A model generated the notes under the pieces. The model worked only from the letters and a program-made list of their open reading frames with translations, was not told where the DNA came from and searched no databases. The position numbers and the translations under genes were made by a program. This document shows, piece by piece, positions 36,209 through 60,567 of a stretch of 64,000 nt of DNA (its first letter is position 1; each line of letters opens with the position of its first letter). Origin of the DNA: Psammoneis japonica. Lineage: Eukaryota. The DNA lies in assembly GCA_008632985.1 (NCBI GenBank), contig QPGO01000049.1, positions 62,001 to 126,000 of the forward strand, written 5' to 3'.

Positions 36209-36266
36209 GGTAGTAGCCAAAGTGTGGGAATTGTGAGAGGGTGGTGGCAATCTTTCGGCTTTCACC

Positions 36267-36880: not shown

Positions 36881-36909
36881 GGCCCCATTTTTATGCAATT
36901 TAATGACCC

Positions 36910-39900
36910 TGCTCCCGTTTTGACTGATTGTCCAACGTGCGACGACTGCTGATGTCGAAAGCATTAACACCAGGCAGTGGCCCTGCTCATTTTCACGAGC
37001 TCCAATTTGCACAGAAGCCACGTGCTGGTTTCTGTGCATTTGTGCAAATTTTGTGCCAGTCGCGTCATTGGTGGGTGTTGTGCGCCGGCCCTGACGAAGT
37101 CTTTCTTGGGCACAAAATGTTTTTCATGTGCAGTGCTTTGGCGCAAATCTGCGCAACATTTTGCACAGGGTGTGCAGAACCACCAGGTGGTTCGTGTGCA
37201 TGAGCAGGGACACAGACAGCATGAGCAGCCATCATTCGAACCCAAACTTGCTCAGTCAGTTTGTGACAGCCCTGTGATTGGCAGCACTCGCAGTCGCAAA
37301 CCAGATGTTTGCATGGTGCAAAAAGATCCACCACCACACCATGTCAGTGTGGCTGAGCTTTTGTTTGGTGGATGTGATGTTGAAGACTTTGCTGCAGATT
37401 TTCTTGATTCAAATTTCTTCTGCTCGTTGTCAGCTCTTGCACCACCCAAATGGCGCACCAAAAATCCAAGAGCTTGCAAGGATGTGCTCAGGTCTCACAC
37501 TTTGGAGGAGATGAGACATTGCATTTCCTGCTTCTGTGATGATGATGTGCCAACCATTGTGCCTGAAATCCATTTTGATGAAGATGACAGAAAAGCAAAA
37601 TGCAGCCCAACCAATCTGACCAAGTTTGAGAACAGCCACTGGTTGTGAAGCACTTTGTGCAGTGCTGCCCAGTGCGCAAGATCACTGGAGCTCCTTTTGG
37701 TGTGTCACAACATTCAGCGAAGAGACATGTTGAAAAATGGGCACCATGGTGGGCCAAACATGGAGAATTTTTTTCACTCTCCCGATGCCCCCAAGGAAGT
37801 GCCAGATGAGTTTGCTGAAACACTGCTTGACTTGGTGGCTTTTCTTGGCAATGGAAAAGATGCTGCTGCAGACACAAAGCACAAAGATGATGATGCATGT
37901 TGCACACAACAAGCCAGCTCCAAAATGCATTGTTTGGCAACTTGGTTTTTGAACTTTGTCATGGTGCATGCACTCTTGTGTGAGCACACTCAGGTGCATG
38001 GGGCTCAACTGGACAAGAGCAAATTGGTGAAATTAGTTGGTGGGTGCAGAGAAGAGAAAATGCCAACACAACAGTGGAAAGATGACCATGCCATGCATGA
38101 CCCATGCTGCAGTGTGCTGAAACATTGGACAGCACTTGAAATTTTGGAAGTCAGGGATTTGCTCAACACTTTGGTTCTGTCAATTGTTGACAAAATGAAG
38201 TGAGATGGCAAGATGGAAAACAGCACAACCAACTGCACTGAGATGGAAGCTGTTGAACCTTCTCAACCATCTGAAAATGGCCTTGTCAACCACATGAGTG
38301 CACACAGCCAAAATGTTGAATGTTCTGATGAATCCAACAGCAACGACTCTTGGAGCACTGGTTGTGAGTCCAACTGGACAGACACAAGCAATGACTGGAG
38401 TGAAAAAGGCATTGAGACAATGTCCTCTGCAGAATCCAGCACCAACCGTGATGGTGAGAAGGTTTCAAAGTGTGAGCACATTTTTGTGAAGTGCAATGAA
38501 TGGCTCAATGAAAGAATTGGGGTTGTTGAAAAAGGAGAAAAGCTCAAAGATGCCACAGTTGATGAGGTTGCATCACTTGTCCATGAAGACCAAGCCTTGT
38601 TGAAGGCTTCAAATGAAAAGGTGGCACTGGCTTGCTCACTGCAAAATGATCTAGAGTCATTTGTTCAGAAACAGGGGCCATTTGAGAAACTCCACAGGCT
38701 GCACAACTCAAAGGCCATCTGGCAAAACATGGTGAGTGCCTGCTTTGAAATGACAAAAGATTGTTGCTGGGAACTTTTTTGCTGGATGAGAAGCAAACTG
38801 ACTCAACCAAACTGCAAAATGCATGACACAGAGTTGCATCCAGAAGTTCACTTGTGCCTGCACAAAACCCTGCCAAACAAAGAAGAGCTCAGTGACAAAG
38901 GTTTTGAGAAGACAGAGCACCATTTCTTTCCACATTTCAATTGAGTGCATGCACCTTGAGTCTTGCAACCATGAGCTGTCAAACAATGTGATGAGCTTGA
39001 ACTTGAAGACAGGAAGGACATTTACAGGGTGCAGCATTGAATGGAAGCATCTTTTTTTTCTTGGCTTGTTGCTGTGAATGGTCTCCACAGCAATGTCCCA
39101 TGCAAGAATCTTTGCATTGTTCCATGCATGTTGGAATGGGGGAATGTGGAAATGAACCTTGGCATTCAACTCCAATGGCCAGGGGCTGACAGTGGTCTTC
39201 CTGTTGTCTCTTGGGATTGAGAATTGAGCAACGGCTAAAAATTGGCATTTGTGTTTGCTTGTGACAAGTTGATCTGCATTGGGTCTTTCCTGTTGTTGCC
39301 ACTGCTGCACTTTGCCTTCTCTTGCACAGTCACAAGTTCAGTCAAAAATGGCACATTGTTGGTTGGAGACAGGGGCACTGTTCTTTCAAATGCATCTTGG
39401 TGAGCACAATGCTGCATTTGGCAGAAAATGAAAAGCGCTGTGAGAGTGTGCAAACACACACCTCATCCATTGCAGCATCTGCAGCATGAAATGGGGTGTG
39501 ACAGAAGTTGTTTGGTGTTGGCATCAAACCCCAAGTAAAGCATGCAGCCTTCCTGTGTCTTTGTTTGCTCCGCCAATTGCAGATTTGATGACACCACTTT
39601 TGTCTTCATGGATGGAATGCAACAGACTTTGAACAGCCAAACCAAATCATCTTCACCAAGTGTCTTGCAGATGCAAAGCTCTCTCACATCAACAAGAACA
39701 TGCCACATTGTGACCACAAAAGAAACCTCAACCCAGATTGTGCTCACTGCCTTTTTGGCAGAAATTTTCAAACAAGCTTGGTGGCACTGAATCAAGCTCT
39801 GAGACACAATCATGACAACAACCATGATCCCAACCCACAGCACTGCAGGTCAACACCACAACCTCATGAACCATCCACACCCCAATTTGCAGTGGGACTC

Positions 39901-42900
39901 TCCAGCTCTGGGACTCTTTTGTTGATCAATGTGAGTCTTCTCACAGCCAACTCCAATTCTGACCAGTCACCAGCAACAGGGCATTCAAGTCAAGTGGTTG
40001 CCCAACACTGCAACATGTCAATTTGCACACATGGAATGGGCATGGCTTCAAAGCCAAACTGAGCATGCAAAGGTGGGCATGGCTCCTTCCCAACAAATTG
40101 CTCATTCTTGAATGCATTGTGTGAAGGAGCCAAAAATTTCTTGCTCAATGGCTTGCCATTAAAAAAGGTCAGCTCTTTAAACTGCCGTGCCATCTGGCAA
40201 CAGCATTGGGGAGCAACTCAGTGGGGTTGAAGCCAATGATGCCTCCTCAAGACAAACCAGGATTGTCTCCTGCATTTCCTTCAAATGAATTCAGTGGAAC
40301 CAGATTGTTGCTGATGTCAAGGACTGGGCAGCGCATGAACAGCACTGCAGTCTTGTCAAAATTCTCCATGTGGCCCGCTGGGATCACAGCCCATTGAAAT
40401 GATCTCCAGACCAGTCTGTGCCAGCAGCAACCCTCAGAAGGATGCAGTCTGCTGAGCCAAGAAGATTTGCTGTTGCCATCCAGTGTTTGAAGAAGTCACA
40501 AGCACCAATGGGTCAATTGGTGGGCAACAGGTCCCTTTCGCACACTTTCCATGCAACACACTGTGCATCAACTTTAAAACAAACAACCTCAGCCCCTGGA
40601 ATGATGGCCTCACCACCCTCACATCACAACACCATCAATCAACCGTCTGCCTCTAATTTGACAAGTTGGTGCTTGGCCTTGTGCTGAGCACATTCACGCT
40701 GCACTCCGCTGCCAACCATCTGTTCTTTGACCACACAAGCAATGACATCTGGCAAAGGATTGCACAGATCTCTTGCTTTTTGCAATGTTTGGTGTTGGTC
40801 AACCTCAGCAATGATGTTGCCGGCTTTGCCTTTCTGATGGTGCTTGTCCATCCATGATCTTGTTGTTTTGTGCAGCCCTCCCCACACTCTTTCTTGGATG
40901 CCCTGCCCTGTCAAAAACACACACAGGAGACACCCAGCTGAGACAAGCTTGTTGTGCATGGACTCAATCACTGTCAACGAACTCTCTTTTTCCACTGGCC
41001 TCACAGCAAATGATTCAGACTGCACTTTGTTGACATTGCCAAGGGCTTTGACCCACAGGTCACCAGCTCCCATTGTTGATGTGTCAAGGTGTCATGGAGC
41101 AGTGATGTGCTGAAGCGCAGCATGGAGGCACACAAAAACAAGTTTTGGTTGTGGATGTCCCTCAAAAATTTTTGGTGCACAACATTTGCACCTGTGCTGC
41201 TGCTCACTGCTTGTGCCAACATGACAAAACAACATGACAGGTGCAAGCTGGTCACCATGACCGACAAATGCCACTTGCAGCAAGGTTGGTTCTTGGGCAG
41301 GGGGAGACACTTGACAAGGGAGCCACAACAACTTGTGGGGAAGGGTTGGGCTGCTGTGACCACTTGAGGGCAATGGTTTGATCAAATGGATCATGATGTT
41401 CAAGTGTTTGTTTTGACAGTTTTGTTTGGTGCTCAGTTTCCAATCATGGAGCATGTCACTCACAAGAAGAAAAAAGACATTTTGGCAAACAAATGTTTCT
41501 TGGTGCTGTTTGCAATTGTCTCTGTCATGCATGTGCCTTGAAAGTCCAGACAGAAGCAGGGGCGAGCATTGCGGATGTCCCCACATTGGAGTCAGTGCTT
41601 TGTTTTGACCATTCTGTTCACAGCTCACACATCCAGTCCTGCAATCACACCATGTGCCTTGCCACAGACAAGAGTGAAAAATCATTTTGTCAAACAAATG
41701 TTGCACAACATTTGTGCATCTCAGTCTTGTTGGAGCCTTCAAAGCTCTTCTGTGTGCAGCGAGAGCTTGGCACAAATGGAGAAAAACAAAGAACAGATGG
41801 CTCACACTGAACTTTGATGCCATCAAATGACAATGATCTTAAAAACAACAAAACAGCCACATCTCCCACTGGCCTGTGTGTGGGCAACACTGTTTTTCCC
41901 TTTGGGGGCTTCAAAATGGAGTCTCAACCAATCTCCATGCCAGCATCAAGATGCCAAAAACACCTTGGCAAGTCATGTGATCTTCTCCAGGATGCATCTC
42001 CCAGAACACTGACTGTGTTGATCAAATCCTCATGGTGCGTTGAACAGCCACTGTTGTTGTCAAATCCTTGGGGTTGCTGCCCAACTTTGTCAGGTCAGTT
42101 GCTTCAATCACAGCCAGCGCTGCTGCTCATGGTGCCTTCTCAGCAGAGGGTGAAATGAACAAAAGACCAGTCACAACTCCAGTGCACTTGTTCTGCAATG
42201 AATGCAAGAGACAGTGCTTTGCACAAAACCCCAGCTCTGGCAGACAATGCCAAAGATTTCCATGCAGCCAACAGCTTCAACACTTCTCATCAAGAGTGTG
42301 GTGATTGTTGCCTCACAACAAAGCAGACCTTGGTGGCACTCTTCATGTGGCTCACTCCATGGATTGCCTTGCATCTGCTCACACAAGTGAGGATGAATTG
42401 GACACCCATGGCAAAGTGGCTTTGAAAGGTGCAGCACCAGGTGTCATGGTGGAATCAAGCATGCCAGAGGAGGCAAATGCAAAAACAGAAGGATGTGTCA
42501 TGGAGAGCAAGGTGCACACCAGCGGCCCAAATCTCATTGTGTGGCCCATCCACAATGTTTTTGACATCTCAACGACATGCACAAGGAGTGGGCACCCTGT
42601 TGCAAAAAAGGGACATGAGCTTGATGTTGCAAAGGGGAACATGTGGTCCATTTTGCAGGGGCAACTTGTCCAGCTGGACGTGGTGGTGAGATTCAGAACA
42701 AAATGATTGGAATTAAAGTGAAGCATTTGTTGAGAAGGCAAAAGCAGTGCCCAAAGGGAGCTCCAAATGGCAGTGCAAATGCAGCAATGAACTGAGCAAA
42801 ATCAGGAAAGACATTGCCAGTGACCAAAAATTGGCGGAACCCATGGTGCTCCCCTGGAATGGTGCAGATGTGAAAACATGCATGTTGTGGAGTGTGGCAA

Positions 42901-45900
42901 GAATCTGCAAGGGATGCACTGTGTGACCATGAAGACATCCAAAGCCAAAGATGCCCAAAGTCATTCAAAAATTTGTGTGGATGTCCTTGGCACACATGGC
43001 CAGATGAAAAAAGAGACCACAAAGGGGGTTGCTTTGCTGTGTGCAGCAACAACCATTCATGGCATTGGAGACTGAGGAGCAGTCATCTTAACTTTCCTTG
43101 CAACATCTGATTGATGCTCACAACTGTTTTTTGCTGCAATGGCTGTGACTGATTGTCCATTTTTACAAGAGGAAGAACATTTCACATAAATTGGTTGGCA
43201 AGCTGGTCATCAAATGACCTTTTCAAAGAGTCTCTTGTCCTGGCAAGTCATGACCAGAGTTCTGCTTGCATTGGGAATGACCTTCAGTGCAGAGTGTTGA
43301 GCAGTTGAAGGGCACACCACTGTCCAATCCACTGCAATCTCATGTGACAAAAATGAAAACAATGTTTTCATGTCTCAATGTCTCAAATTGCTGTGCTGAT
43401 CTTTCATGATGTTTTCTCATTTGCTGGATGGCACTGAGGCCTTTCAAATTACCCAATTGCTCCACTGACATCAAGCCATGATGATGCCATTTTCATGCTG
43501 TTGTTTTGTGCACTCTAGTCTCCCACACAGGTTGACAAGTCAGACAGCCTTTTTTGCCCTTGCTTGCTGACTCTCGTGTGTCTCTGATGGAGCATCGGGC
43601 CTGCCTCAAGCTGGCTTTTGGGCACAATGTTTCATTGAACTCTCTGTCCAACACCTGCTTCCACCACTCATCCAGAGAGGCTGACACTGGCGCACACTCT
43701 GGTTCTTCAGTGGGCTGCAGTCTCTGGCTGGAAGAATGTTTCTTGGCTTTTTTCAGCTTGAAACCACAGCTCAGCTTCTGTCACAACCCTCGCCAACATG
43801 CTTTCTGGATTGTGCTTGCACAACATGCCAACCCCCTCAAAGCAGCTGCCATTTTTCTGCTCTCTTTTGTCCACCTTCAGTTGAACCAATGTGCCAGGTG
43901 AGATGGCCACACTTTTGTTGAACCTTGCTTTCATTTTTGGCGCCCCACTCTTGCCTCAGCCCCTGGCTTCTTTGTCACATCAAGCCTTCTTGTGTCTTCA
44001 GCTTTGATCTTCTGGGTTGTCAAGTGCATTGGAGGTTAGTGTGCCTCCATCAAGCTTCCAAATCTTGCAAGGGGGTGTGCCATTTGGAGCTGGCATGGGC
44101 CCCACATCCTTCATTTTTGTGATGGCTTGACATTTGCCAGCATTTCAACTTGGTCCAGCAACACAGCAAGCACTGTCTGCTCCAAACTTCTCTGCCATTC
44201 TGTCAACAAGTTGATCACATGCTGTCCTTTTTCTTTAGACTTGACACCCACATGCGTCTGCTGCAATTTGGCATCAGTGGATTTTGTGCCACTTGCACAA
44301 CTCCATGAAAATTGCTGGGCCCCTTTGTTCTCTTCTTGCTCCAAAGCTGCCATCAGGTCAAAACCTGGCATGTTCTCCCACTCCTCCAGCATTTCATCTT
44401 CCTCCTTCTCACTTGTGAAGCTGAGCCAGTCACCAGAGGATGTGAACACTGTGTTCCTCTGGAACCCCACCACAGCTCCTCTCCTCTGTTTTCCAGCCAT
44501 CGTTCCACACTTGAGCCTGATTTTGGATCCGATCCTGAGAAAATGCCCTTCAAGATTGTCCAAGGCATTGCAGAAGGGGGGCTGAGACAACTCACCATCT
44601 GTCTCTCTTGTTCTTCATTGATGACACTTTTCACATCATTGGGAATTTGTGCACATGATTTGTCTTCCATGTCAACAGCTGTCCTGCAAACTCTCCAGCA
44701 GAAGTGCAAGTCATTGCTTGGATTTTCAGCAACTCCCTGTGCTTTGTCATCACAGCCACTTGGCAACCATCTGGAGACATGACTTCAAGGACCATGGGCA
44801 AGCTTTCGGGTGAAAAAGGAAACTCCAAATTGAGGCACAAGCACAAGGTCCACAGCTGTTGTGCCATCATGCTGCTTTCACAGCAGCCTGCAACCCCAAC
44901 TCACTTTCCATGCTTTGCTGGAACCAAGCTGGTGGCAACATTTTGCTGGGGGGAGGCTTTTCTTGTGCCAAAACACATCTTGTTTGAGCACTGGGGCTTG
45001 CCAAGCCACACCATTTGAGAACAAACATTGCTTGGTCATTCAAAGTGCCCAGCTTGCAGTCAAAACCATCAAAAACTTCTCTGCAGCCTTTTTGGAGAGT
45101 GAAAACTTCAGAACCACATGAAGTCCAGACGGGCCTGCAACAAAAAGCAGCATTTTGACAGATGCTGGCAGATCCCATGGGTTTGTCCTCAATTCCTCCT
45201 CAAGATGAAAGAGTGGTGCTGTGGACCCAAACTGAGCATGAGAAAGTCTTGCATGGTCTGAGTGACCCTCACAAGCAATTGACCAGCAGAACAAGGACAC
45301 AAGCTTTGTGTCAAACCATCATTCTGTGGTTTTGTGGATGTGGGTCAAGCCATCATTGCAGCAGCTGATTGCAAACAGATGGCTGGAGATGCAGCACTTG
45401 CTGCACAGCAGCGCTGGATGAACACACTTGTGCCTTGTTCTGTCATGCATGATTGACTCATGGTGAGCTGTTTTGGACATGTCCCTGCCACGTTGGAGCA
45501 GAGACAGGGACCACAACTTGTTGGGGTCTGATGCACGCTGCTTCTTTGTTGCAAGGGGGTTTGTCTCCAGATCTGTCCCCTGCTTTGATGTCCCTGGCTC
45601 CTGCTCCTGCTCTGCCACTGCCTTTGTTGTCTGCACCCCTGGCTTTGTCAGCTTCATCTTTGTGGGCTCCACCTTGGCCCTTGCTTGGCTTTGGCTCCAG
45701 CTTTGTTTGCTTCAGCTTGGTGGGCTCTGCCTTGCTTGGCTTTGGCTCCAGATCAGTTTGTCTCAGCTGTGCTTGAGTTGTGGGTCTGGCTCCACTGGCT
45801 TGGGCTGTTTTGATTGGGTGGTTGGAGCATTCAACAGACCCCTGGTGCAGCGGCATTCTGGGCCCACCCTGGACAGTGTTGCTGCAGCATGGATTGAGCT

Positions 45901-47880
45901 CTTAGATGGCCTCAATCACTTCCTCTGCTGCTGTGAACTCCTTCCCATTGTCTGTGTGGCCAACAAGGGGGCAGCTGATCACAGAGCAAAAGTGGCAGAA
46001 CTCCTTTGCTTCATTTGTGGGAATGGCCACCATCCAGATCAACCCTGTGCAGTGATCTTTCAAACCACAAGCCACTTCATCAGCAGGGAGTTTGGGTCTT
46101 CTGGGTGGAGGTTTCAAGGGTCTTCTCCCACTCAGATCACTGCAGAAGCTTGGAGGCTTTTGTGGAAGCACAGTGCCATCAAAGTCTTTGTTCTCGTCAT
46201 TGAACACAGCCTTGTTGAAGGCTTCTCTGTGTTTGGTCTCCATGAAGATGCTCCTGACCTTCTCAGGAGAAGTTGTGGCAGTGGCGTTAAAGTGGGAGGG
46301 GTGGACGGCAACTGACATGGTGGCAAACGCAGCACAAAGAGACTCTTTCTGACTGAGAAACTCAACAGAACCACAACAAGACAGTTGCTGCAATGAAGCA
46401 AGCAACAGAGGCAGAGAGGGCAAGCTGGGGGAACCATTGAAAATCCATGATTTGCACAAGTCAGAACCCAGGCACTGGGTCTGATTGTCTGAAATCCATG
46501 TTCAAAAGATTCCATGCCACAGCTCCATGGAATCTTTTTTTGTGGAATCTTGGGTTCTAAAGAATTGTTGCAACATGCCCTTCTTGACAAACCATCTGCC
46601 ACACATTGCAAGACAATGCAAAAAAATCACAGGTTCTTGTCATGCAGCCTTTTTTTGTTTGTTTGCACTCAAAAGAGCACAGTGAAGAAATGACACACAT
46701 CATTTGTTCAACAGGTGGTGCTGATGGTTGGCTGCATCTTGATCCTTGACTCCACAGTGCTGAAGCAAATCAATGGAGTTGTCAGAAAACAAAATTTGGA
46801 AACATTTGCTTGTTGTGACAACCAAGAAAGAAAAACAGATGAGAGCACACAAATCGAAAAATTTGGCTCTTCTTTCTGACTCTTGGCACTCGGCTTAAGA
46901 GCACGACTGCACACCATGGTGCAGCAGGCTTCATCTGGGGGTGAGAAGATTTTGCAATGCTGTTCCTTCTTTTGTGGAGAACAGAATTCTGGTTTCTTAG
47001 AAATTTTTTTCTTCCCTCATCTTCATGTCCCCATTTTCTTCCATGACACTCTCTCATTCTGCCTTGGTTCAAACATTTTGCCAACATGCACATCATTGCA
47101 CATTGATTTGCATTGTCAAATCCAATGTGGTTGTTTGTTGTGAATGTGAAGAAAATGGAACCATGAGCAATTTTGTGCACCCAATGTTTGCAATGGTGTG
47201 ACAAACAACAGTCAGAGTCAATCCCCAAAAATTGTGGGTGCAGATTTTTTGCCAAACCTCAAAACAATGCGCAGCTGCGTCTTTTTGAAAATTTTTGTTT
47301 TTTTTTCCCAGACACACAACCTGACAATGAGACAACAGTGCTTCATCTAAACTGCTGCTGTGAATGATGCATGCCATTGCAAGTTTGCAACTGCTGTCGT
47401 CTGGACTTGTGGGGTCCTTTGTTTGCAAAAAGTGGTTCCGCACTCACAGAGAAATGCGTGGATTTGTCCAAATTCATTGGCTTGAAAACAGTGGTGCACA
47501 AACAAATTGATTGTCACCATTGTCAATGAGCACCACTTCACTCATCATTTGCATTGAATCTGTTGTTTGTTTGTGCAGAGAGTTGGGCATCACATGTTGG
47601 TTTGTCAGGATGTCAATTTTGTGGAGGCCAAATTGCATTGTCGGCAACTGTGAGTTGATGATGATTTTGTCAACAACAATGAGAAAGGCAATGAAACTTG
47701 TTGATTTGGGAGGCATTTGTTGTCACAATGATGTCAAGAAACAAGAAGCACTCTCATCATGAGGAGATGGATGGTTGGGGGGATGATGCATGTCTGCATG
47801 CCAAAGGTGCAAGCTCAACAGGGAACACTTTCAAGAAACGAATGAACTGCATGTCAACCATCCAAGTCGGGCCCTCTTTC
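36910..47880. mobile_element. Large degenerate TpA/CpG-depleted TE-derived block, mostly unclassified
   Basis: About 25 TA dinucleotides in 11 kb by eye; decayed Cys/His-rich ORFs on both strands; contains an integrase remnant. Confidence 0.6.
45830..46460 (-). pseudogene. rve/DDE integrase remnant of Ginger/KRBA2-like type
   Basis: LKDHCTG...GHTDNGKEF...(stop)...GGPRMPLHQGSVECSN matches the D, DNGxEF and GRPxxPxxQGSVE catalytic pattern. Confidence 0.65.
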
Positions 47881-47881
47881 T

Positions 47882-48279
47882 TGATGAAATGGCAGTTGGA
47901 AAAGCAAATGCAACCCAGCGACATTGTGTCATTGGGTGCAATGAACACACTTGTCAAAAGACACCCCAGCAAATGATGCAGTTGCTGGCCACACTTCACT
48001 GAAATGTGAACATTGCATCTGCACAAGTGTGGTCTCACACACACAAGCAAGGCGGGTGCATTCTCCTTTCATTCCACCTTGCTCTCAGCAACATTTCTTG
48101 CTCATTCCAACACATGTTGTTTCCAGTTTCCTTGGTGGATGTCACTTGCAAATCTCCTCCCCAACCACACACTTGTGGCAACAGATTTAGCAGGGATCAT
48201 CTTCAACTGTCAAGACAAACATGGATCATTGGACATTGCTGCAGATTTAGCTGATTGGAGTGCTCAAATTCCTCCAATG
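47882..48279 (-). repeat. 3' LTR of the older element
   Basis: Aligns, with indels, to 52552-52675 joined to 59789-60078. Confidence 0.7.
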
Positions 48280-51200: not shown

Positions 51201-52675
51201 TGTCCAAGTCAGGAGCTAAAAAGGCATCTCAATTGGGACATCCCCCCTGTTGCCATGATGTGATGCATCAAGTGACACAGTGTGGGGTGGTCATGCACCA
51301 TGATGAGTGGTGTGCACAGGTGTGGTGGGCCTCTGAAGGACATGCGGGGGACAAGTTGAGATGCATGTCAGTGAGAGGCTGAGTGTGTGGGTGGAGGGTC
51401 TGATGGTGGGGCTGTTGCAGGAGCAGTGGTGACAGCTGGTGTTGGTGCAGCACCAGAGGAGTTTTTGGTCAAGGCTGTGGCAGTTGCTGGTGTGTGTGGA
51501 TGCATCCACATGAGGGGCATTTGGGAGCACCTTGGCAGTGCTGGCAGTTGTGGGAGGTGTGGGATCCTTGTGGAGCTTGAGCCACTTGATGTTGAACAAG
51601 ATGTTGGCATCTTTTGCCATGCACAGCTAAACCTTCCTTGTCAAACAAAGAGACCAGGAAGTCACCTGCATCACCATGCATGAAATCTCTTGCACAGGTC
51701 CCAAGCAAACATGTGGGTGTGCATTGTGTCCACTCCAAGGTTCCTGAAGGGTTCACATCTGAGGATGTTGCACACTTTCAACAATGGGAGTTGGCAGAAG
51801 CCCACGAAGAGTTGGATGTTGGTGATGCAATGTTCGCGCAAGAACTGGGTGGTGTCAGCAGACAAGCATGGTTTGCGGGCTGGTGCCGTGAGAAATTCTT
51901 ACAGTGTGTCACTGGTTCTTGGCGCTGCACACACAAAAAGGCGGGTCATCAACATTGTCCTGGTTTGTGGTGGTTGTTTTGGCCTTCAAGTCATTCTTGG
52001 GGCACTTGCTTGAAGGGGGTTGGTGATGCAACATCTGCAAGCATGTGTCAGGGATGTGTCAGTGTTGCACAGCGTGTTTTGCAGTGTTTTCATCACTGGT
52101 CCCATGCTCTTGTGCCTGAGTGTTTTGCAGCATTGTGTTCACTGGTCACATTCTTGTGTTTCTTCAAGCCTCTGCAACCTCTGTCAGTGGTGCTTCTCAT
52201 GTCTGGCATGAACGTTGAGAGCCTGTCACAGGGGCACCAAGCTTTGGTGCTTGCAAAACACACTGTCAATTCAGCGTCCTCTGCCAAATCCACAAGAGGC
52301 AACATGGGCTCTCTCTGATTTTGTTCAATCCCTTGGGCAATTGCCAGTCACCTTGAAGACCTTCATGTGAGCACAGACCTCCTTGGGCTGCTCAACTTCC
52401 TCAGTTGTGCACCGGCAGGAGTGCTTCTGCCCCAGGCTCTTGACTCCTCGAATGTTCGTGCGGGGCTCTCGACTCGAATCTTCGTGCTAGATGCAATCTG
52501 GTCGCCAACAGAATCTCTTTCTCTCTGGCAGCTGAACAAAGCAATTGGCTGTGATGAAGTGGTGGCAGCCAGGAAAGCAAATGAGATCCAGTGGTGTTGC
52601 ATCATCGGGTGTGATGAAATGAACACACTGATCACAAAGGACACCCTGACGCAGCCACTGGGCACAATTTGCCAA

Positions 52676-52951
52676 TGACAGGATTTGAGCAGGATTTGGG
52701 TGCGCGCAAAATGTCGCGCGCTGTTTAGTTTGCCGCACACAGTTTTGTGTGCTTTAGTTCCGCGCGTTCGCGCGCGATGCAGTTTGCTTTCGAGCCACAA
52801 GGCTCACAAGAATAATGACAGTGGCCCGGTTGTGCCGACTCACACGTCTTTCGGCTCCTGTGACGGTCTCTGAGCGGAGATTCATCTGCCATTTAGACAG
52901 CAGTGAGGAGTCATTGTTTGAATTCTTGCCATTTGCCTTCATTTTCTGTCA
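52676..52951 (+). repeat. 5' LTR
   Basis: Gapless match to 59508-59783 with 22 mismatches by manual alignment. Confidence 0.95.
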
Positions 52952-53890
52952 GATTGACAGTCTTGCTCATTGTCAACCCATTGAGCAACCGCCATCATCG
53001 TCGTTGATTTACCAACGACGCCATTTCAATTCTGCGTGGACCTCCGCACATGATCTACATACATCGGCAAGTCTGCGCGCATTCAATGCCAGGGCATCGG
53101 CAGGAAGTTAACGTCACCGTCAAGTCTCCTTGCCACTGGATGTCTGGATTGATTGCACTGCCTTTGATCGCTGAAGACATGCATTCAACGGTCATGTCCA
53201 AGTCTGTCCTTGATCCTCATCCCTTGACACACCCACTCATCAGTTGACGGTCAAGAACCCCACACATTCAAGGATCTTCGTCGCTGAAGACACACACACA
53301 TGTGCGCATCTTCACGGCCAAGAACCTGCACCCACTCTTCGGACTGCGGTTTTGCTGCCACTCTGCAAGCACACCGAGTCCATTGTGCCTGATCCACCCT
53401 GGACTGCTGGTGCTCTGCAGTTCCACCAGGTCCACGAGGATGACTGTGAGAGCAAGCAGCCGTGATTGCAGCCTGCGTTGGGGCGAGGGTGCTTTCCCGC
53501 GTTTGTTCGTTCGTCCACAGCGCCCAACGCCTACGTCAACTGGCCAGCCTGATCGGGAAATCCAACCGACATAAAATGAGAACGGTTCGGGGGTCTTGTC
53601 CACCTCCAGTCAGCTCACCTGCAGGGGTTTGCAACCCGCTGCTCCGCTCGCAAGCAACCCAAAGCGCCGCTGGCTGCGGGTTCGGACGTGCCGGCACAAC
53701 TCTGCGGACCGGACAGGAAGTTTAGCACTTGGCAACGAACGGGGTGGCAAAGCCCGGCGACTTCTGATTTTAAGATAGATCAAGATTTCAAGTCAAGTCC
53801 ATTTCAAGTCAAGTCTGTTCTCACCCAAGCTTCAAGCCTGCCTTCGCTTCCCAACAAGAGTTGCTTGTCCTGACACCACTTTTGTCCACC

Positions 53891-56800
53891 ATGGTTCTCA
53901 CTCGTCAGCAACAAACCGATGGTTTCGAGCACGTTGTTGGAACCATGCTTGCCCAGGGTGCTGGGAGCCCTCTCCGTTTGGCTTTGGCACAAGACGGCAC
54001 GGACTCGCATCAGGAACTGTTCACGTTCATGCTGCCCCAAATCGACTCGCTTGAGTGCGACAACGGCACTGATGTGATCCCTTTGCCCCGTGGTTACAAG
54101 AACATGTTGGCAGCTCCAGTCAGTCTGTGCATTGTCAAAGCACACAAAGGTCTTGACGTTGCCAATGACTCCTCGTTGTTCACGCATGACGAGTTCCTTG
54201 CCTGCCGCCTCAGCCCCGACTGCATGTCTTCTGTGTCCATCGGCAGCTCACCCCTCGCACCTCCGCATGTCACCAACCCGACCAAGGCACGCGACCCGGT
54301 GCGGGACTTCAAGCGAGGCATCAAGCATGATCCCACCGCTTTCACGGCTCTCAAATCCGACAAGCAGTGGCACACTTGGCACACCTCACTTGTGGCACAA
54401 GCCCATGCCCAAGACGTCGAGTGCATTCTAGACTCGTCGTACAAACCGACCAGCCCCGAAGACAAACTGCTCTTTGCTGAACAGCAAAAGCACATGTTCG
54501 CTGTCTTCGAACGCATCCTTCTCACCGACAAGGGCAAGGCTCTCATCCGCGAAAATGTGGGGTCTTCTGATGCACAGACCGTCTGCCGCGCCTTGTCTGA
54601 GTGCGCGCTCGCCTCCACCCGTGCATCTGTCGAGTCCTCCACCCTGCTGACGCACCTCACCACCGCACGTCTTGGTGATGGTGCTTGGAAAGGTCCGACC
54701 CACGGGTTCATCCTTCATTGGCAAGATCAGTTGCACAAGTGCGAGGCACTCATCCCGGCCAGTGACCACTTCTCTGAAGGACAGAAGCGCGTCATGCTCG
54801 AGAATGCCGTGCACCCTGTCGAGGAACTCCGTGCTGTCAAGAACCAAGCTGATCAGCATCGTACGCAGAGTGGCAAGAGCCTCACATGCGATCAACACTG
54901 TGGCTTGCTCCTCTCCGCGGCAGCCCAATGCGACAGTGCGTTTCAACCCAAGACGACACCTCGAGCTCCCCGCCGCGCCATGTGTGCACACGACGTCTGC
55001 TCCGAGGAACCGTCCGACGATGTGTTCTACGACATTGACAGTGACATTGACGTCCTTCAGGCCAATGCTGCCTGCACCCGTGGTCCCAGCCTCACCGGTG
55101 ACCAATGGAAACGTCTCCCTCCCGACCACCAACGGATTTGGGATTCGTTGCCCCATTCCTCCAAGGCGATCATCCTTGAGCATTCTCGTCCGCCTCCCCG
55201 CAACCCGCGAAACAGCAACTGCCATGAGTCCGTTACGGCCAACCTTCACGACCAACGCCTTGGGAGTGACGGTGATGTCAACTTGTCCAACACGACTCCT
55301 GCTGACTCTGGTGACTCCGCTCCAAATGTGGGTGCCACTTCGGATGATCCCATCCTGGCGCGCCTCACCAAGCGCAAGCCACTGCCACCCGGTGATCTGC
55401 ACCGTCTGTTGTCTCCTAACCAAGCCCCCAATGCCAGTCGACCGGGGCCATCCGCCGCTCCCTCTACCCCGCCAGCTTCTGCCGATGACATGGAACTCAA
55501 CGGCCGCACTTGCCGCCGCGTTGACAACCACAATGTCATTTGCTCTGCCTCTGCTCATCGCTCCACACGCACTGGCGCTCTAGTTGATCTTGGGGCCAAC
55601 GGCGGCATTGCTGGCGACAACGTTCGCGTCATTGCACGCACCTCTCGCCAAGTCGACGTTCAGGGCATTGACGATCATCAATTGGTGGACATCCCTGTTG
55701 TCACCGCTGGTGCCGTCATTGAGACCCAGCGTGGTCCCGTCATCGCCATCCTCCATCAGTGCGCGTGCACGGGAAAGGGCAAGACCATCCATTCCTGCGG
55801 CCAGCTCGAATGGTGCAAACAGGATGTCAACGATCGCTCTGTCAAGGTGCCCAACGGCTTGCAACGTGTTGCCACTCCTGATGGCTGTGTCATCCCCATT
55901 GACATCAAGGCCGGCCTGCCTTGTGTTGCCATGCGACCTTACACTGACGCCGAATGGGACACCCTGCCCCATGTCATCCTCACCGGTGATGACACATGGG
56001 ATCCTTCCATCCTCGATCACTCTGTCACTGATGACGACCAGTGGTGCGACGCGATCTCTGACCCACAGGACGATCCCACTGCCAACCTGTTTGACGAATG
56101 CGGCAACTGCCGTCATCGTGTCGTTGTCAACGAGACCATCATGTCCGCTTCCTTGTCTGCCGATCACGCGTCCGCCCTCGATGATCACCTCATTCCGAAC
56201 GACGACGTGTTCTGCGAGTGTCATCTGCACGCGATTGACCCCAAGGACGACGACGTCCCGCCCCCGGAGCGCACTGCACAGCCCAAGGACCCGCCCTTCG
56301 AGTCTCTTCGGCCTTGCTTTGGCTTCCTACCCACCGACACGGTCCGTCGTACTTTTGACTGCACCACGCAGTGCGCCCGCATGCCCACCGGTACACACCT
56401 TAGGAAGGCCTACAAATCACCCAACCCCGCCCTTGATGTGCACCGCCGCAACGAGCCTGTCGCCACTGACGCCGTTCATGCCGACACCCCGGCCGTCGAC
56501 TCTGGTTGCACCAGTGCCCAACTGTTTGTTGGCACCGAGTCTGCCGTCACTGACGTCTACGGCACCAAGACGGACAAAGAGTTTGTCAACACACTCGAGG
56601 ATCAGATCCGTGAGCGTGGTGCCCCATCCAAACTCATTGGCGACCGTGCTCAAGTTGAGATCAGCAACAAAGTGCTCGGGATCCTGCGGGCCCTCTTCAT
56701 CTCCAGCTGGCAAAGTGAGCCTCACCAGCAACACCAAAACTTTGCCGAGCGTCGACACCAGACCGTGAAGCGCATGGCGAACACTGTCATGGATCGTTTT

Positions 56801-59560
56801 GGTTCGCCCGCCCACACATGGCTGCTGGCGCTCATGCATGTGTGCTTCATGCTCAACCACACAGCATCCCCACGTCTCCACTGGCGCACGCCCCTTGAGA
56901 CTCTCACTGGCTCCACCCCGGACATCAGCCCATTGCTTCACTTTCACTGGTGGGAACCCGTGTGCTTCCACCTCGATGACTCCGATTGGCCGTCCGAATC
57001 CCGTGAGTTGCGTGGACGCTTCGTTGGCATTGCTGAGCATGTCAGCCACCAGATGACCTTCAAGATTCTCTCTGACGAGACTCAGAAGATCCTCTGCCGG
57101 TCCAACATCCGCTCCGCTGCCACCGATCCTGCCGTTCGAAACCTGCGTCTTGATCCTCCTGATGGGGAGCCACCTGAACCCATCATCAAATCTCGCCATG
57201 ACGACAACCCCATCGATTCTCCTGATGGGGAGATCAGGACACCCAAGATGCCAGTTTTCGATCCGCAAGACATCATTGGACGCACCTTCCTCATGCAGCC
57301 ACAAGAGGACGGACAACGCCACAGAGCTCGCATCGTCAAGGCCGTCGAAGACCACGAATGGAAAGTGAACGGCAATCCCGAGCTCACTGAGTTCGTCTGC
57401 TCTGTCAACAACGACGAACACGAGGAAGTCCTTGCCTGCAATGACATCATGAATCACATTGAGCAAGAAGACGAAGACACTGCTGTTTGGAAATTTTGAT
57501 GCATCGTGTCACATGAAGGACCTCTGAAGCCTCACGACCCAACCTGGAAAGGCTCAAGCTACAACATCATGCTTGAATGGGAAAGTGGGGAGATCACGTC
57601 CGAGCCTCTTGCCATCATCGCCAAGGACGACCCCGTCACCTGCGCCATCTGTGCACGAGAGAACGGACTCCTCGACACGGATGGCTGGAAGCGGTTCCGC
57701 ACCATCGCGAGGCGCCAAAAGAAGCTGTTTCGCATGGCCAACCAAGCCAAGCTTCACTCCTTCTGCACTGCACCTTGCTGCAAGTGCGGATGCGAAGTTC
57801 CCCGGAACTGCAAACACGCCATGTCACTGGACGAACGCAACGGCAACCGCAAATGGGGAGACGCAACTAATCTCGAGATGGACCAACTCGACGAATGCGA
57901 AGTCTTCCATGACTGCGGGCCCTTCGAGTCTTCCACTCCTCCTGCGGGACACAAGAAGATCCGAGTGCACCCAGTGCACGACGTGAAACACGACGGTCGC
58001 CACAAGGCACGACTCGCAGCCGACGGGCACCTCACGGACGTGCCTGTCGACAGTGTCTGCTCCGGAGCAGTCTCCCTCCGTGGCCTTCGGCTGATGATTT
58101 TCCTGGCCGAACTCAACGAGTTGGAGACATGGGCCACCGACATTGGCAATGCCCACCTTGAAGCCACCACCAAGGAGAAGCTTTACATTGCAGCCGGACC
58201 CGAATTTGGCAAACTCGAAGGACACATCCTTGTCATCCACAAGGCCCTGCATGGACTGCGCAGCTCCGGTCTCCGCTGGCACGAGCACTTCGCCGACTGC
58301 CTGCGAGCTGAAGGCTTCTTCCCCTGCCGCACCGAACCCAACATTTGGATGCGCAGGAACGGCGACCACCATGAACACATTGCCATTTATGTGGATGACC
58401 TCGCCATTGCCATGAAGGACCCTCAATCTTTCGTCGATGCTCTCACGGAAAAGCACAAGTTCAAGCTCAAGGGTGCGGGACCCATTGAGTTCCATCTGGG
58501 TTGCGACTTTTCCCGGGATCCCGACGGAACCTTGTGCCTGTCTCCGCGCAAGCACATCGAGCGCATGGTTGACAGCTGCGCCCGACTGTTTGGGGAGAAA
58601 CCTGCCACCAACGCCCTGTCACCTCTGGAGAAGGGTGACCACCCCGAACTGGACACTTCCGAACTGCTGGGACCCGATGGCATTCACAAGTTCCAGTCTC
58701 TTGTTGGTTCACTCCAATGGGCAGTGTCCCTTGGTCGAATTGACATTGCCACGGCCGTCATGTCACTCTCTAGCTTCCGAGCTGCGCCCCGTCAAGGCCA
58801 CTTGGATCGTGCCAAACGCGTCTGTGGGTGCCTCTCCAAGATGCGACACGGTGCTCTCCGCGTTCGCAAGGAAGAGCCCGACTGTTCGGATCTCCCTGCC
58901 CCGGCCTGTGAATGGATGCATTCCGTGTGCGGCGAAGCAGAAGAGATGATCCCGAAGGACGCTCCACCACCCCTTGGCAAGTTCGTCACTGCCACCCACT
59001 ACGTCGATGCAAACTTGTGCCATTGCATGCTCACCGGACGCTCTGTCATGGGAATGCTCCACTTCCTCAACAAATTCCCGGCTGATTGGTTCTCTAAGAA
59101 GCAAGCCACCACAGAGACTGCGACCTGCGGGTCTGAATTTGTTGCTGCAAGGACTTGTGTCAAGCAGATTGTTGACCTGCGCATCACCCTGCACTGCCTT
59201 GGCATCCCGATCCGTAATGTCAGTTGCATGTTCGGTGACAACAAGTCGGTTGTAGACAGTGCCACCATCCCGCACTCCAAGTTACACAAGCGACACACTG
59301 CACTGTCGTTCTGCCGTGTGCGTGAGGCAATTGCCTCTGGTTGCCTTGAGTTCCACTTCATCGAAGGCTCCCGCAACCCTGCTGACATCCTCAGCAAGCA
59401 TTGGGGTCACTCCCAAATCTGGGACCTTCTCCGCCCCCTCATGTTCTGGAGCTTCATTTCATCCAAAGTCGAATCTGTTTCTGTGACTCCTCAAGCAAAC
59501 TGGGGAGTGACAGGATTTGAACAGGATTTGGGTGCGTGCGAAATGTCGCGCGCTGTTTAG
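53891..59560 (+). pseudogene. Copia gag-pol polyprotein pseudogene (in-frame TGA at 57497, many Tyr->His/Cys substitutions)
   Basis: Gag DFKRGIK; protease VDLGANGG; integrase SEPHQQHQNFAE; RT KHDGRHKARL and YVDD; RNase H GSEF, FGDN, NPADILSK. Both ORFs are in the same frame across the stop. Confidence 0.9.
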
Positions 59561-59783
59561 TTTGCCGCGCACAGTTTTGTGTGCTTCAGCTCCGCGCGTT
59601 CGTGCGCGATGCAGCTTGCTTTCGAGCCACAAGGCTCACAAGAACAATGACAGCAGCCCGATTGTGCTGACTTGCACGTCTTTCGGCTCCTGCAACGGTC
59701 TCTGAGCGGAGACTCATCTGCTGTTTAGACAGCAGTGAGGAGTTGTTGTTTGAATTCTTGCCATTTGCCTTCATTTTCTGTCA
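59508..59783 (+). repeat. 3' LTR
   Basis: Preceded by PPT GGGGAG and followed by TSD GCCAA. Confidence 0.95.
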
Positions 59784-60567
59784 GCCAAACACAAACATTG
59801 CACCTGCACGAGATGTGGTCTCACACACATGAGCCAGGTGAAGTGCATCCTCCTTTCACTCCACCTTGCTCTCAACAATGTTTGTTCACTCGTTTCAACA
59901 CTTTCATTGGTGGGTGTCATTTGCAAATCTCCCCCCCCCCCCCAACACAGACTTCCTGTGGCGGCCACAGATTTTTTTTTTTAGCCAGGATCATCTTCAA
60001 CTGCCAAGACAAACTTCACAGTTCATCAGACATGTCTGCAGATTCGACTTGTTGAAGCACTCAGAGATTCCTCCAACATGAGACGCATCGATCAAAGCAG
60101 GGCCCCGCCATCCAAGTGGAACACATTGCACGCAACTACCTCTAGAGCAAGGCGGGGACCGAATCCCGAATCCCGAATCCCAAGGATTTCTATCCTTTTT
60201 AGGAACTAGGCTATTCAAACAATACCATACAAAAACACAAAGCTTAACTATTTCTATCGACACCTATTTTCGTATTCTAAAATTCTGACACATGGAGGAA
60301 GCGCTGTCGTGTCGGCGGCGGTGTCTTTCCCGTAGAAATCGTACGAGTCGCCACGTAGAAACGCGTCAGTCGCAATCCGTTTCTCGCAACTCTGCAGAAA
60401 TATTTTTTTTGTATGTATCGTTGTTGTTGAGGTTGTTTTTATGACACCTCTTGTTGTTCTGTTTTGAGTTTCATGGTCTTGGAATAAAAGAAATTGAATT
60501 GTCGGTGTGGTTTGTTTGAATAAGCAAGCCGTTCTCAACGGCTTGTTGAATTGATTGATTTTTGAAT

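Follow-up and report, generated by a model that had tools for sequence, protein, structure and literature searches.

Introduction

To our knowledge, mutational genome defences are barely known beyond fungi and the antiviral deaminases of animals. The closest described process is found in the chlorarachniophyte Bigelowiella natans, where integrated viral DNA undergoes A:T→G:C hypermutation that is reported at TpA only (Mettrop et al., bioRxiv 10.64898/2026.01.13.699255). According to the main text of this preprint, A→G and T→C made up 230 of the 231 mutations in the two viral regions, all at TpA in the authors' account, the rate was measured in mutation-accumulation lines with a TpA rate difference of more than 1000-fold, and the main target was single copy (10.64898/2026.01.13.699255). 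This preprint on a rhizarian alga is the one earlier report of a TpA-directed A:T→G:C system. Fungal RIP needs duplicated DNA together with RID/DIM-2 in the sexual phase, and the diatom DNMT4 is described in the available text of PMC9998398 as related to RID and of unknown function.

The window analysed here comprises 64,000 nt of the diatom Psammoneis japonica (contig QPGO01000049.1). A first-pass annotation, made from the letters alone, had claimed that three blocks in it, taken to be transposon-derived, were nearly free of TpA, and had presented the process as one perhaps not described before in diatoms. A literature search that covered the main text of the preprint found no report of TpA hypermutation in a diatom; additionally, a term search of Maumus 2009 (PMC2806351) did not return the word 'deamination', and none of the 12 passages covered out of 23, all of them CoDi passages, speaks of hypermutation. 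What is new is the footprint in a diatom and on a transposon, while the kind of process has a precedent in the viral inserts of B. natans, described in one 2026 preprint. Overall, our analysis reveals a DNA-level, TA-context mutation footprint that post-dates integration and extends over a copia element and the degenerate blocks adjoining it.

Results

Dinucleotide composition and borders of the depleted blocks

The counts bear out the near absence of TpA in the three blocks. The old block at 1-2160, which continues past the start of the window and in which no TE domain was found, holds 8 TA and 27 CpG, that at 6045-10440 holds 6 TA and 26 CpG, and that at 36910-52675 holds 32 TA (roughly 30 had been estimated) and 107 CG in 15,766 nt. 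The latter block is interrupted by a copia insertion (52676-59783) with 41 TA in 7,108 nt, and resumes at 59789-60120 with 1 TA and 7 CG. Pooled observed/expected ratios of TpA are 0.03 for the old blocks (47 TA in 22,598 nt), 0.12 for the copia element and 0.58 for the flanking genes (1,322 TA in 33,353 nt), which is in agreement with the earlier statement that TpA is ordinary in the adjacent genes. The loss has sharp borders, which can be placed within tens of bases: the last ordinary TA on the left stands at 36901, followed by TA at 36965 and then only at 38034, and on the right TA is back at 60137. The tandem units at 36216-36905 were considered as a paralogue against which the block edge could be polarised, and rejected, given that homology stops where the TA-free block begins.

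Both TG and CA are raised, with pooled ratios of 1.84 and 1.89 in the old blocks, 1.53 and 1.37 in the copia element and 1.15 and 1.16 in the genes, which indicates that both strands were hit, as the first-pass annotation had proposed. It had overlooked, however, that part of the excess in the old blocks is ordinary 5mC decay at CpG, since CpG is nearly gone there (pooled ratio 0.12, compared with 0.88 in the copia element and 0.99 in the genes). Block edges are without TpA but retain CpG, which may point to a coupling with chromatin. Every dinucleotide other than TpA and CpG has a ratio of at least 0.79.

The TA sites that survive differ in their flanks from those in genes. Only 5 of the 41 in the copia element are contained in ATA or TAT, against 47% of the TA sites in genes, and 33 of the 47 in the old blocks are TTAA plus CTAA/TTAG, against 13% in genes; the baseline of this flank preference is the host genes, and the element, which is richer in GC than these (0.57), may have begun with another mix of TA sites. 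TAY as the sole target was ruled out by the occurrence of Tyr→His also after C or T.

A Ty1/copia retrotransposon with open frames nearly devoid of tyrosine

The segment 52676-59783 (+ strand) is a Ty1/copia LTR retrotransposon, as demonstrated by its direct LTRs with TG...CA ends, the 5-bp target duplication and the RVT_2 domain. Its 5' LTR (276 nt) spans 52676-52951 (+) and its 3' LTR 59508-59783 (+), the two sharing 92% of their nucleotides, or 99.3% when only purines and pyrimidines are distinguished, and the target-site duplication GCCAA lies at 52671-52675 and 59784-59788 (+). The first open frame of the polyprotein, on the gag to integrase side, runs from 53774 to 57499 (+) and is terminated by an in-frame TGA (57497-57499), with no Pfam family detected along it. 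The second open frame, at 57500-59560 (+), encodes the Ty1/copia reverse transcriptase (RVT_2, E 2e-24). Tyrosine amounts to 0.5% of the residues of the first frame and 0.6% of those of the second, which has 4.5% Cys and 5.5% His, compared with a median of 4.3% Tyr among the homologues. The atlas clusters closest to the element are recorded as Bacillariophyta.

The copia family is very abundant, at roughly thousand-fold depth, as the summed word depth is 66,000-141,000 within the element and about 60 in its flanks. The full-length reading covers one transposon copy; among the 35 variant rows listed inside the element, 14 set TG or CA in the window against TA in other copies (share 0.29-0.97), two go in the reverse direction and one concerns a dinucleotide that is CA versus TG. 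The abundant copies are not themselves TpA-free, a possibility raised in the first-pass annotation, but carry TA at the same places. Reads that showed TA at the depleted sites had likewise been named as a possible objection; the contigs of run X1 (about 60x) reproduce the TA-free sequence, matching 42001-52705 with 0-5 differences per piece. The runs listed with this stretch are four, all from one sample of one study that is possibly the assembly's own source, and they include neither an independent study nor RNA.

Old blocks of putative transposon origin

The block at 36910-52675 has a word depth of 60-141 in run X1, essentially that of a single-copy sequence. No Pfam match above the curated cut-offs was obtained for the old-block ORFs (8 of at least 200 aa and 39 further ones of at least 110 aa in 36910-52803), and none for the ORFs at 6730-7359, 7955-8557 and 8714-9403 in the block at 6045-10440. 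The copia reverse transcriptase HMM had no match in the six frames of the old blocks, and the tblastn matches of 14 homologues of the copia polyprotein were confined to the young element. A match to APOBEC1 in one old-block frame was dismissed as a chance frame (14.8 bits, compared with a cut-off of 27). The lengths of the old-block ORFs are those that chance produces in TA-free sequence, as the longest ORF reached at least 282 aa in 16 of 100 shuffles.

Comparison of the window with itself, by blastn and in the purine/pyrimidine alphabet, returned only the LTRs and one old repeat pair within the TA-free DNA. The older repeat copy lies at 47888-48280 (+) and is paralogous to the target of the copia insertion, a sequence now split into 52561-52675 and 59789-60079; the pair differs by 60 transitions and 23 transversions, with 13 TG/CA double differences. 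The first-pass annotation had described all blocks as TE-derived and the loss of TpA as restricted to transposons. Both statements hold for the element at 52676-59783, with its LTRs, 5-bp duplication, RVT_2 domain and sharp borders, whereas for the older blocks, which yielded no TE domain, a transposon origin is putative.

Polarity of the changes in conserved protein columns

The direction of change was read against 35 homologous polyproteins with 502 conserved columns. The copia copy is intact at 445 of these columns and deviates at 57, of which 26 are undone by one TA→TG/CA reversal, 10 by one CG→TG/CA reversal and 21 are of other types, which confirms the enrichment for TA→TG/CA that had been suggested as a check. 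At the 23 columns of conserved tyrosine, the copy has Tyr at 2, Cys at 11, His at 7, Phe at 2 and Trp at 1, and the picture was the same when the comparison was repeated with 60 homologues (Tyr kept at 3 of 21, Cys at 10, His at 6). Conserved Tyr codons have thus turned into Cys or His at 18 of these 23 columns, with a Cys (TG) to His (CA) ratio of 11:7.

A metagenome scan for related loci gave a single locus, L001, which served as a control. This related element shows 29 changes, none of TA type and 7 of CG type, and keeps Tyr at 9 of 9 conserved columns; its CpG ratio is 0.01 and its TpA ratio a normal 0.49, so that methylated, decaying TE DNA is not generally TpA-losing. Conserved tyrosine was also kept in two control proteins (18 of 18 and 14 of 14 columns). 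Additionally, 5 Tyr-depleted copia reverse transcriptases that carry His or Cys where Tyr is conserved occur among the best 150 representative proteins.

Differences between the two LTRs

Of the 276 LTR positions, 22 are not the same in the two copies, in every case through a transition. These differences comprise five TG/CA double differences, two TA/CA differences, five in which CG faces TG or CA and five others, and random placement produced at least five TG/CA doubles in 1 of 200,000 trials. Because TG and CA disagree between the LTRs of one insertion, the changes post-date integration. By type, 12 of the 22 differences are attributable to TpA and 5 to CpG, and in the LTR pair 12 of 18 visible ancestral-TA copies have mutated, compared with 5 of 44 CpG copies; the decay of CpG in the LTRs is therefore several-fold slower than the loss of TpA. 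The excess of TpA over other LTR changes is large, yet far under the rate difference of the preprint, which could reflect episodic activity or a different process.

Discussion

Taken together, these results are best explained by targeted TA→TG/CA hypermutation of the B. natans kind, probably by a DNA adenine deaminase, an explanation in which we have moderate confidence as a whole. The central proposal of the first-pass annotation, a TA→TG/CA process distinct from both C→T RIP and 5mC decay, is upheld by the Tyr→Cys/His replacements, the TG-versus-CA disagreements of the LTRs and the TA carried by sister copies. In this process, 5'-TA-3' becomes TG or CA, equivalent to A→G on either strand, over a copia-type LTR retrotransposon and adjacent degenerate blocks, with an abrupt end at their borders. 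The loss of TpA is far quicker than methylated-CpG decay, because most TpA is gone from the young element while most CpG is kept, and the completion of both losses in older DNA has left TG and CA as nearly the sole pyrimidine-purine steps. Since TA→TG/CA is unable to make an in-frame stop, frames remain open while Tyr is exchanged for Cys or His.

The agent would most likely be a deaminase that converts adenine to inosine on DNA and belongs to the ADAT2/3 type, the TadA type or another deaminase fold; it may be steered to transposon or heterochromatic DNA, perhaps by repeat pairing, small RNA or a chromatin mark, and prefer the flanks TAT > TAC > TAR. A DNA adenine deaminase is a candidate only, as the best we can infer, and no gene for such an enzyme was found in the window, as the first-pass annotation had also noted. 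More tentatively, the diatom and the chlorarachniophyte may share an old genome defence, possibly SAR-wide and the mirror image of RIP, in which a guided DNA adenine deaminase would erase TpA to saturation in transposons and integrated viruses and kill their coding capacity, stop-free, by Tyr→Cys/His and similar changes; this wider reading is possible rather than probable. If true, it would account for the Tyr-free open transposon frames found across marine sequence collections.

The alternative that survives best involves no dedicated defence, and supposes that a housekeeping activity (e.g., a tRNA adenosine deaminase) or spontaneous single-strand chemistry slowly erodes TpA in compacted or late-replicating DNA. 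Although the old blocks share domains of TpA and CpG loss, and the LTR excess of TpA changes is far below the 1000-fold of B. natans, such slow erosion is hard to reconcile with a young element that is mostly without TpA at a CpG ratio of 0.88, with borders defined within tens of bases, and with the control L001, where CpG fell to 0.01 and TpA stayed at 0.49. We consider this explanation unlikely.

It is also quite unlikely that thymine is the base targeted, by a TET/JBP-type oxidation of the TpA thymine to 5hmU or 5fU, which would mispair with G and yield T→C. The TA step is palindromic, so that sequence does not distinguish A→G on one strand from T→C on its complement; moreover, TpA is the context of dinoflagellate 5hmU and of base J in the telomeres of kinetoplastids, and T→C is the change favoured by 5-formyluracil. 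However, we know of no such thymine-oxidising enzyme or base in diatoms, and glycosylase processing should add transversions, of which there are 0 among the 22 LTR differences.

The uniform transitions of the LTRs (22 of 22, with 99.3% purine/pyrimidine identity) weigh against patch repair of methylated repeats by a Y-family polymerase, a pol-eta-like option (WA→WG) that the first-pass annotation had offered and that is now disfavoured, as pol-eta spectra are rich in A→T and A→C and AA should also be a target. The WA motif does accommodate TA→TG, and three of the five 'other' LTR differences would lie in TT (AA→AG on the opposite strand) under an assumed T→C direction. Nonetheless, the near clearance of TpA with most CpG kept is unlike repair triggered by CpG deamination, and this mechanism appears distinctly improbable.

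That deaminases edit retroelements ahead of integration is well established in animals, and A-to-I editing of the retrotransposon RNA, or editing of its cDNA, would leave changes of a similar type. Five TG-versus-CA disagreements between the LTRs of one insertion already contradict this explanation for the LTR differences; the marks fall on both strands without one-strand bias (11 Cys versus 7 His), and the paralogous repeats of an old block that has no retroelement signature show TG facing CA at 13 sites, all of which makes pre-integration editing very improbable. An artefact of sequencing, base-calling or polishing at modified bases is just as hard to sustain: the reads do come from a single study, possibly the source of the assembly, and their platform is unrecorded, but the run X1 contigs (about 60x) agree with 42001-52705 to within 0-5 differences per piece, an artefact would not swap Tyr for Cys or His and yet spare 445 of 502 conserved columns, and Tyr-depleted relatives are present in other public data. 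Finally, a natively TA-poor element, owing to codon usage, foreign origin or TA-avoiding selection, would fit the GC of 0.57 above that of the host genes but has almost negligible probability, being at odds with the homologues' median Tyr (4.3% versus 0.5-0.6%) and contradicted both by the change of 21 of 23 conserved Tyr columns and by the TA at the same places in abundant sister copies.

Targeted hypermutation, if it is the correct explanation, has several implications. The process may be widespread in marine protists and would act on transposons as well as viruses, and diatoms offer a more tractable group for finding the enzyme; genome-defence biology and base-editing technology would both have an interest in a natural DNA adenine deaminase. 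In practical terms, hypermutated elements keep long open frames and are thus easy to misannotate as genes, while they evade domain searches. Age estimates based on LTRs are distorted as well, with 12 of 22 differences of TpA type and 5 more of CpG type.

Comparison with known systems

The deamination of 5mC resembles the process described here in turning a palindromic pyrimidine-purine step into TG or CA, and it is also present at this locus (CpG ratio of 0.12 in the old blocks, 5 of 22 LTR differences, 10 of 57 protein deviations). It cannot remove TpA, however, and L001 shows what CpG loss alone looks like; CpG decay is a second, separate process here. APOBEC3 and ADAR of animals are similar as deaminase-type transition hypermutation of retroelements, but their substrate is the cDNA or RNA ahead of integration and their marks fall on one strand, whereas here the LTRs differ and both strands are affected, and APOBEC makes C→U rather than A→I changes. 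Somatic hypermutation by pol-eta (WA→WG) shares A→G at TA and differs in its transversions, which are absent from the 22 LTR differences.

Fungal RIP is alike in being a DNA-level, post-integration process that produces only transitions, on both strands and in a dinucleotide context, and in being able to saturate and ruin transposon copies. Its chemistry is the opposite: RIP changes C to T, chiefly as CpA→TpA, and makes TpA and stop codons, while here the change is A:T→G:C, TpA is destroyed and stops cannot be made. The RIP signature of raised TpA and lowered CpA/TpG is accordingly absent at this locus, where loss of TpA goes with elevated TG/CA.

The B. natans system, as presented in the main text of the preprint, differs in host, in target and in extent. 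The host here is a diatom (stramenopile), and the words 'diatom' and 'stramenopile' do not occur in that text; the target is a very high-copy LTR retrotransposon rather than a single-copy giant-virus/virophage insert; and depletion is near saturation (0.03-0.12), against a Rho of 0.45 in their NCLDV region, and is superimposed on CpG decay. A live rate is available there, raised by orders of magnitude per generation and in only some of the lines, while the present estimate is a relative one from the LTR pair only, and the flank preference reported here has no counterpart in that text, from which the word 'context' is absent. The likenesses concern the mutational process itself, since the changes in both cases are nearly only A→G or T→C, at TpA, yielding TpG or CpA according to strand, and leave a long-term footprint of low TpA with high CpA and TpG. 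Confinement to blocks of foreign DNA, as in B. natans, holds here for the copia element, with the flanking genes at 0.58, and is putative for the older blocks; TE-type Pfam families are enriched among the low-TpA coding sequences of that alga, and an adenine deaminase is the proposed agent, as a candidate, in both. These parallels suggest that the diatom locus may record a targeted hypermutation of silenced foreign DNA like that seen in the B. natans mutation-accumulation lines.

Results

Loss of TpA was measured by a 1-kb scan of the window and by pooled dinucleotide counts. The first-pass annotation had described nearly TpA-free blocks with about 30 TA in 36.9-52.6 kb, and the counts bear this out: 32 TA were found in the 15,766 nt of 36910-52675, 8 in 1-2160, 6 in 6045-10440 and 1 in 59789-60120 (together the old blocks), and 41 in the 7,108 nt of a younger element at 52676-59783. 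The pooled observed/expected ratios of TpA, TG and CA were 0.03, 1.84 and 1.89 in the old blocks, 0.12, 1.53 and 1.37 in the element, and 0.58, 1.15 and 1.16 in the flanking genes, confirming that adjacent genes have ordinary TpA and that TG and CA are raised in the blocks. Block edges are sharp, with ordinary TA density until 36901 and again from 60137. The CpG ratio was 0.12 in the old blocks, a loss on which the earlier annotation was silent, 0.99 in genes and 0.88 in the element. The near disappearance of CpG leaves two possible sources for the TG/CA excess of the old blocks, and the TpA process is visible on its own in the younger stretch. At 36910-37460, 10326-10440, 1931-2114 and 6077-6097, many CpG are left where TpA is already lost; the outermost 100-500 nt of these blocks thus still bear CpG, and the TpA-free domain is slightly wider than the CpG-poor domain.

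The younger stretch (52676-59783) is a Ty1/copia-type LTR retrotransposon with direct LTRs of 276 nt (52676-52951 and 59508-59783), TG...CA ends and an intact flanking 5-bp target duplication, GCCAA. Its first long frame (53774-57499) ends at an in-frame TGA and its second (57500-59560) contains an RVT_2 domain (E 2e-24). This lone TGA (57497-57499) splits the copia polyprotein where the aligned homologues have Lys (24/34) or Arg (7/34). No Pfam family was found in the gag-to-integrase part (53774-57496), and the precomputed Pfam content of the listed homologues is RVT_2 only; either the lineage is poorly modelled or the families are masked by mutation load. The insertion site is an older repeat, 52561-52675 and 59789-60079 being jointly paralogous to 47888-48280. 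The transposon origin proposed for all blocks therefore holds for 52676-59783, on the basis of LTRs, target duplication and RVT_2. The old blocks gave no such match: their 47 ORFs contained no Pfam family above cut-off and have lengths at chance level for TA-free sequence, and neither an HMM of the element's reverse transcriptase (RT) lineage nor tblastn matched them. That these blocks derive from transposons is an assumption.

The block at 36910 adjoins a tandem array (36216-36905) of three units of 170-250 nt in which TpA and CpG are ordinary, with the homology ending at the start of the TA-free block. On the minus strand, 29699-36268 carries four consecutive open frames with gaps of about 40 nt and DUF1800 and DUF1501 matches, which probably form a single large gene interrupted by short introns (its homologues in diatoms span 1,200-2,000 aa). 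Additionally, a 156-nt unit is repeated three times in tandem at 3737-4204, within a 1,113-aa frame with a Peptidase_M64 match and PT repeats. Homology places the host among the diatoms: the best named relatives of the DUF1800/DUF1501 gene are diatoms only (35-45% identity; Pseudo-nitzschia, Fragilaria, Nitzschia, Seminavis, Epithemia and others), its best unnamed matches reach 51% identity, and the atlas clusters nearest to the element's RT are recorded as Bacillariophyta.

Three independent lines polarise the change, namely protein outgroups, the LTR pair and sister copies. The 120 top relatives of the RT frame (52-67% identity) have median contents of 4.3% Tyr, 1.2% Cys and 3.7% His, compared with 0.6%, 4.5% and 5.5% in the window copy. 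Against 35 long homologues, the window copy is identical at 445 of 502 columns conserved at ≥80% and differs at 57, where the consensus residue is restored by a single TG/CA to TA reversion in 26 columns and by reversion to CG in 10, the remaining 21 being other changes. The 23 conserved Tyr columns hold 2 Tyr, 11 Cys (TGY), 7 His (CAY), 2 Phe and 1 Trp, and the Cys:His ratio of 11:7 indicates that both strands are affected. With 60 homologues, Tyr was kept at 3 of 21 columns (10 Cys, 6 His), and GTA to GCA, CTA to CCA, ATA to ATG and T|ATT to T|GTT changes were also observed. As a control, the same procedure applied to L001, a related copia element on a metagenome contig, returned 29 changes, none of TA type, 7 of CG type and 22 others, with Tyr kept at 9 of 9 columns. 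L001 (4,027 nt) has 3 CpG (observed/expected 0.01) and a normal TpA ratio of 0.49, a case of pure CpG decay with TpA kept, demonstrating that the two losses are separable.

The LTRs of one insertion start identical. Here 22 of the 276 positions no longer match, each through a transition, and identity in a purine/pyrimidine alphabet is 99.3%. The differences comprise five places with TG versus CA, two with TA versus CA, five with CG versus TG/CA and five others; when 22 transitions were scattered at random 200,000 times, one trial gave at least five TG/CA doubles. Since TG against CA at one place can only derive from a palindromic TA or CG that was struck on a different strand in each LTR, these events occurred in post-integration DNA. 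Mutation was seen in 12 of 18 visibly ancestral TA copies versus 5 of 44 CpG copies, both lower bounds because concordant LTR changes are invisible.

The summed contig word depth over the element was 66,000-141,000 in one sample versus about 60 on its flanks, which indicates a very abundant family. Among the 40 variants listed (387 further ones exist), 35 lie inside the element: other copies have TA where the window has TG/CA in 14 (share 0.29-0.97), the reverse occurs in 2, and 2 show CA versus TG at one dinucleotide; other copies have CG where the window has TG/CA in 7 and CA where it has CG in 1; 1 is ambiguous, 6 are other transitions and 2 are transversions. The TA form had a share of 1.0 in three small runs at 13 of the 14 places, those covered, and in one run its share was 0.70 at 53088 and 0.68 at 53196. 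The presence of TA in sister copies at these places implies that the family's abundant form is not itself TpA-free, so the first objection foreseen in the first-pass annotation does not apply. In contigs of sequencing run X2, 143 places have T/A against C/G in the window, 110 the opposite, and 27 are transversions. The protein outgroups and the LTR pair rule out classical RIP polarity, in which the other copies would have changed from CA to TA. The three lines thus support the core of the earlier interpretation, a TA to TG/CA direction distinct from RIP.

The TA-free sequence was also checked in reads. In contigs of run X1 (about 60x word depth), 42001-52705 recurs as four pieces that deviate from the window at 0, 0, 1 and 5 letters, although the four runs come from one sample of one study, possibly the source of the assembly, with platform unrecorded, and are not independent support. 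The sole differing letters at 46196, 48972, 51346, 52275 and 52489 (three window CG versus CA/TG, one window TA versus TG and one other transition) may reflect allelic variation or very recent mutation of the CpG and TpA types, but the numbers are small.

TA is evenly sparse along the element (0-5 per 250 nt), and TA in any flanking context can be affected, yet survival is uneven. ATA/TAT-containing sites make up 5 of the 41 surviving TA in the element versus 47% of TA in genes, and TTAA with CTAA/TTAG 33 of the 47 in the old blocks versus 13% in genes. This suggests a flank preference of TAT > TAC > TAR, with the caveats that genes only approximate the original context mix and that newly created TA may be among the survivors. 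Because TA to TG/CA changes are unable to create an in-frame stop, long open frames remain in a dead element.

A comparison with 1.84 billion representative proteins yielded five among the 150 best matches whose Tyr content is 0-1.9% and whose Cys and His are raised. These copia RT proteins keep Tyr at 0/9 (P0321), 0/13 (P0295), 1/7 (P0389), 2/10 (P0352) and 3/12 (P0267) conserved columns, the lost columns being mostly His or Cys; P0057 keeps 11/22, and the six together span 0-2.3% Tyr. Controls kept all (P0244, 18/18; P0257, 14/14). Since the depleted proteins are 46-64% identical to the query, they belong to other families or other hosts, in which the same footprint is thus present.

Discussion

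Our results demonstrate a DNA-level, post-integration process that acts on both strands, makes transitions only, is TpA-specific and domain-limited, and outpaces CpG decay. It is fairly probable that this process and the targeted hypermutation reported in Bigelowiella natans are of one kind. Because its products are exclusively transitions, adenine-to-inosine deamination in DNA would be the simplest chemistry. A by-product of housekeeping activity in compact chromatin would not require a dedicated defence, but we consider it unlikely. Thymine oxidation with mispairing, indistinguishable from adenine deamination from sequence alone, seems slightly less likely still. The pol-eta-like repair offered in the first-pass annotation is weakened by the missing transversions and appears improbable. 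Editing before integration is contradicted by the LTR discordances and is very improbable. The same holds for an artefact, which is contradicted by the read contigs and the protein pattern: conserved columns are largely intact with losses concentrated on Tyr, and Tyr-depleted relatives occur in other public data. Native composition is hardly credible given the sister copies and the Tyr loss.

We found no earlier description of TpA loss from diatom transposons in the literature searched. In the classic diatom transposon paper (PMC2806351), a term search did not find "deamination", and hypermutation is mentioned in none of the 12 passages inspected out of 23. Diatom DNMT4 enzymes are described as RID-related with unknown function (PMC9998398), which makes them a starting point for seeking a RIP-like pathway but provides no evidence for the process seen here.

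The window is a further case of a process described once, in a preprint on a distant lineage, here with one copy fully read. In mutation-accumulation lines of the chlorarachniophyte B. natans, the mutation rate of two integrated viral regions is about 1000 times that of the remaining genome, with 230 of 231 mutations in these regions being A to G or T to C, all on TpA according to the authors, and with hypermutation in some lines only (Mettrop et al., bioRxiv 10.64898/2026.01.13.699255, 14 April 2026). The same preprint reports 324 low-TpA coding sequences enriched in reverse-transcriptase and DDE domains and 124 window clusters that are TpA-poor and CpA+TpG-rich, and proposes, without demonstration, an ADAT2-like DNA adenine deaminase as the agent; the words "diatom" and "stramenopile" are absent from its text. 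Our finding points to a mirror image of RIP that may be widespread among marine protists, and the diatom adds a second system for tracking down the enzyme. The mutation signature is the same in both systems, whereas the host lineage here is a diatom, the proven target is a high-copy LTR retrotransposon instead of integrated viral regions, and the degree of erosion differs, with the window also bearing an overlay of CpG decay and a flank preference.
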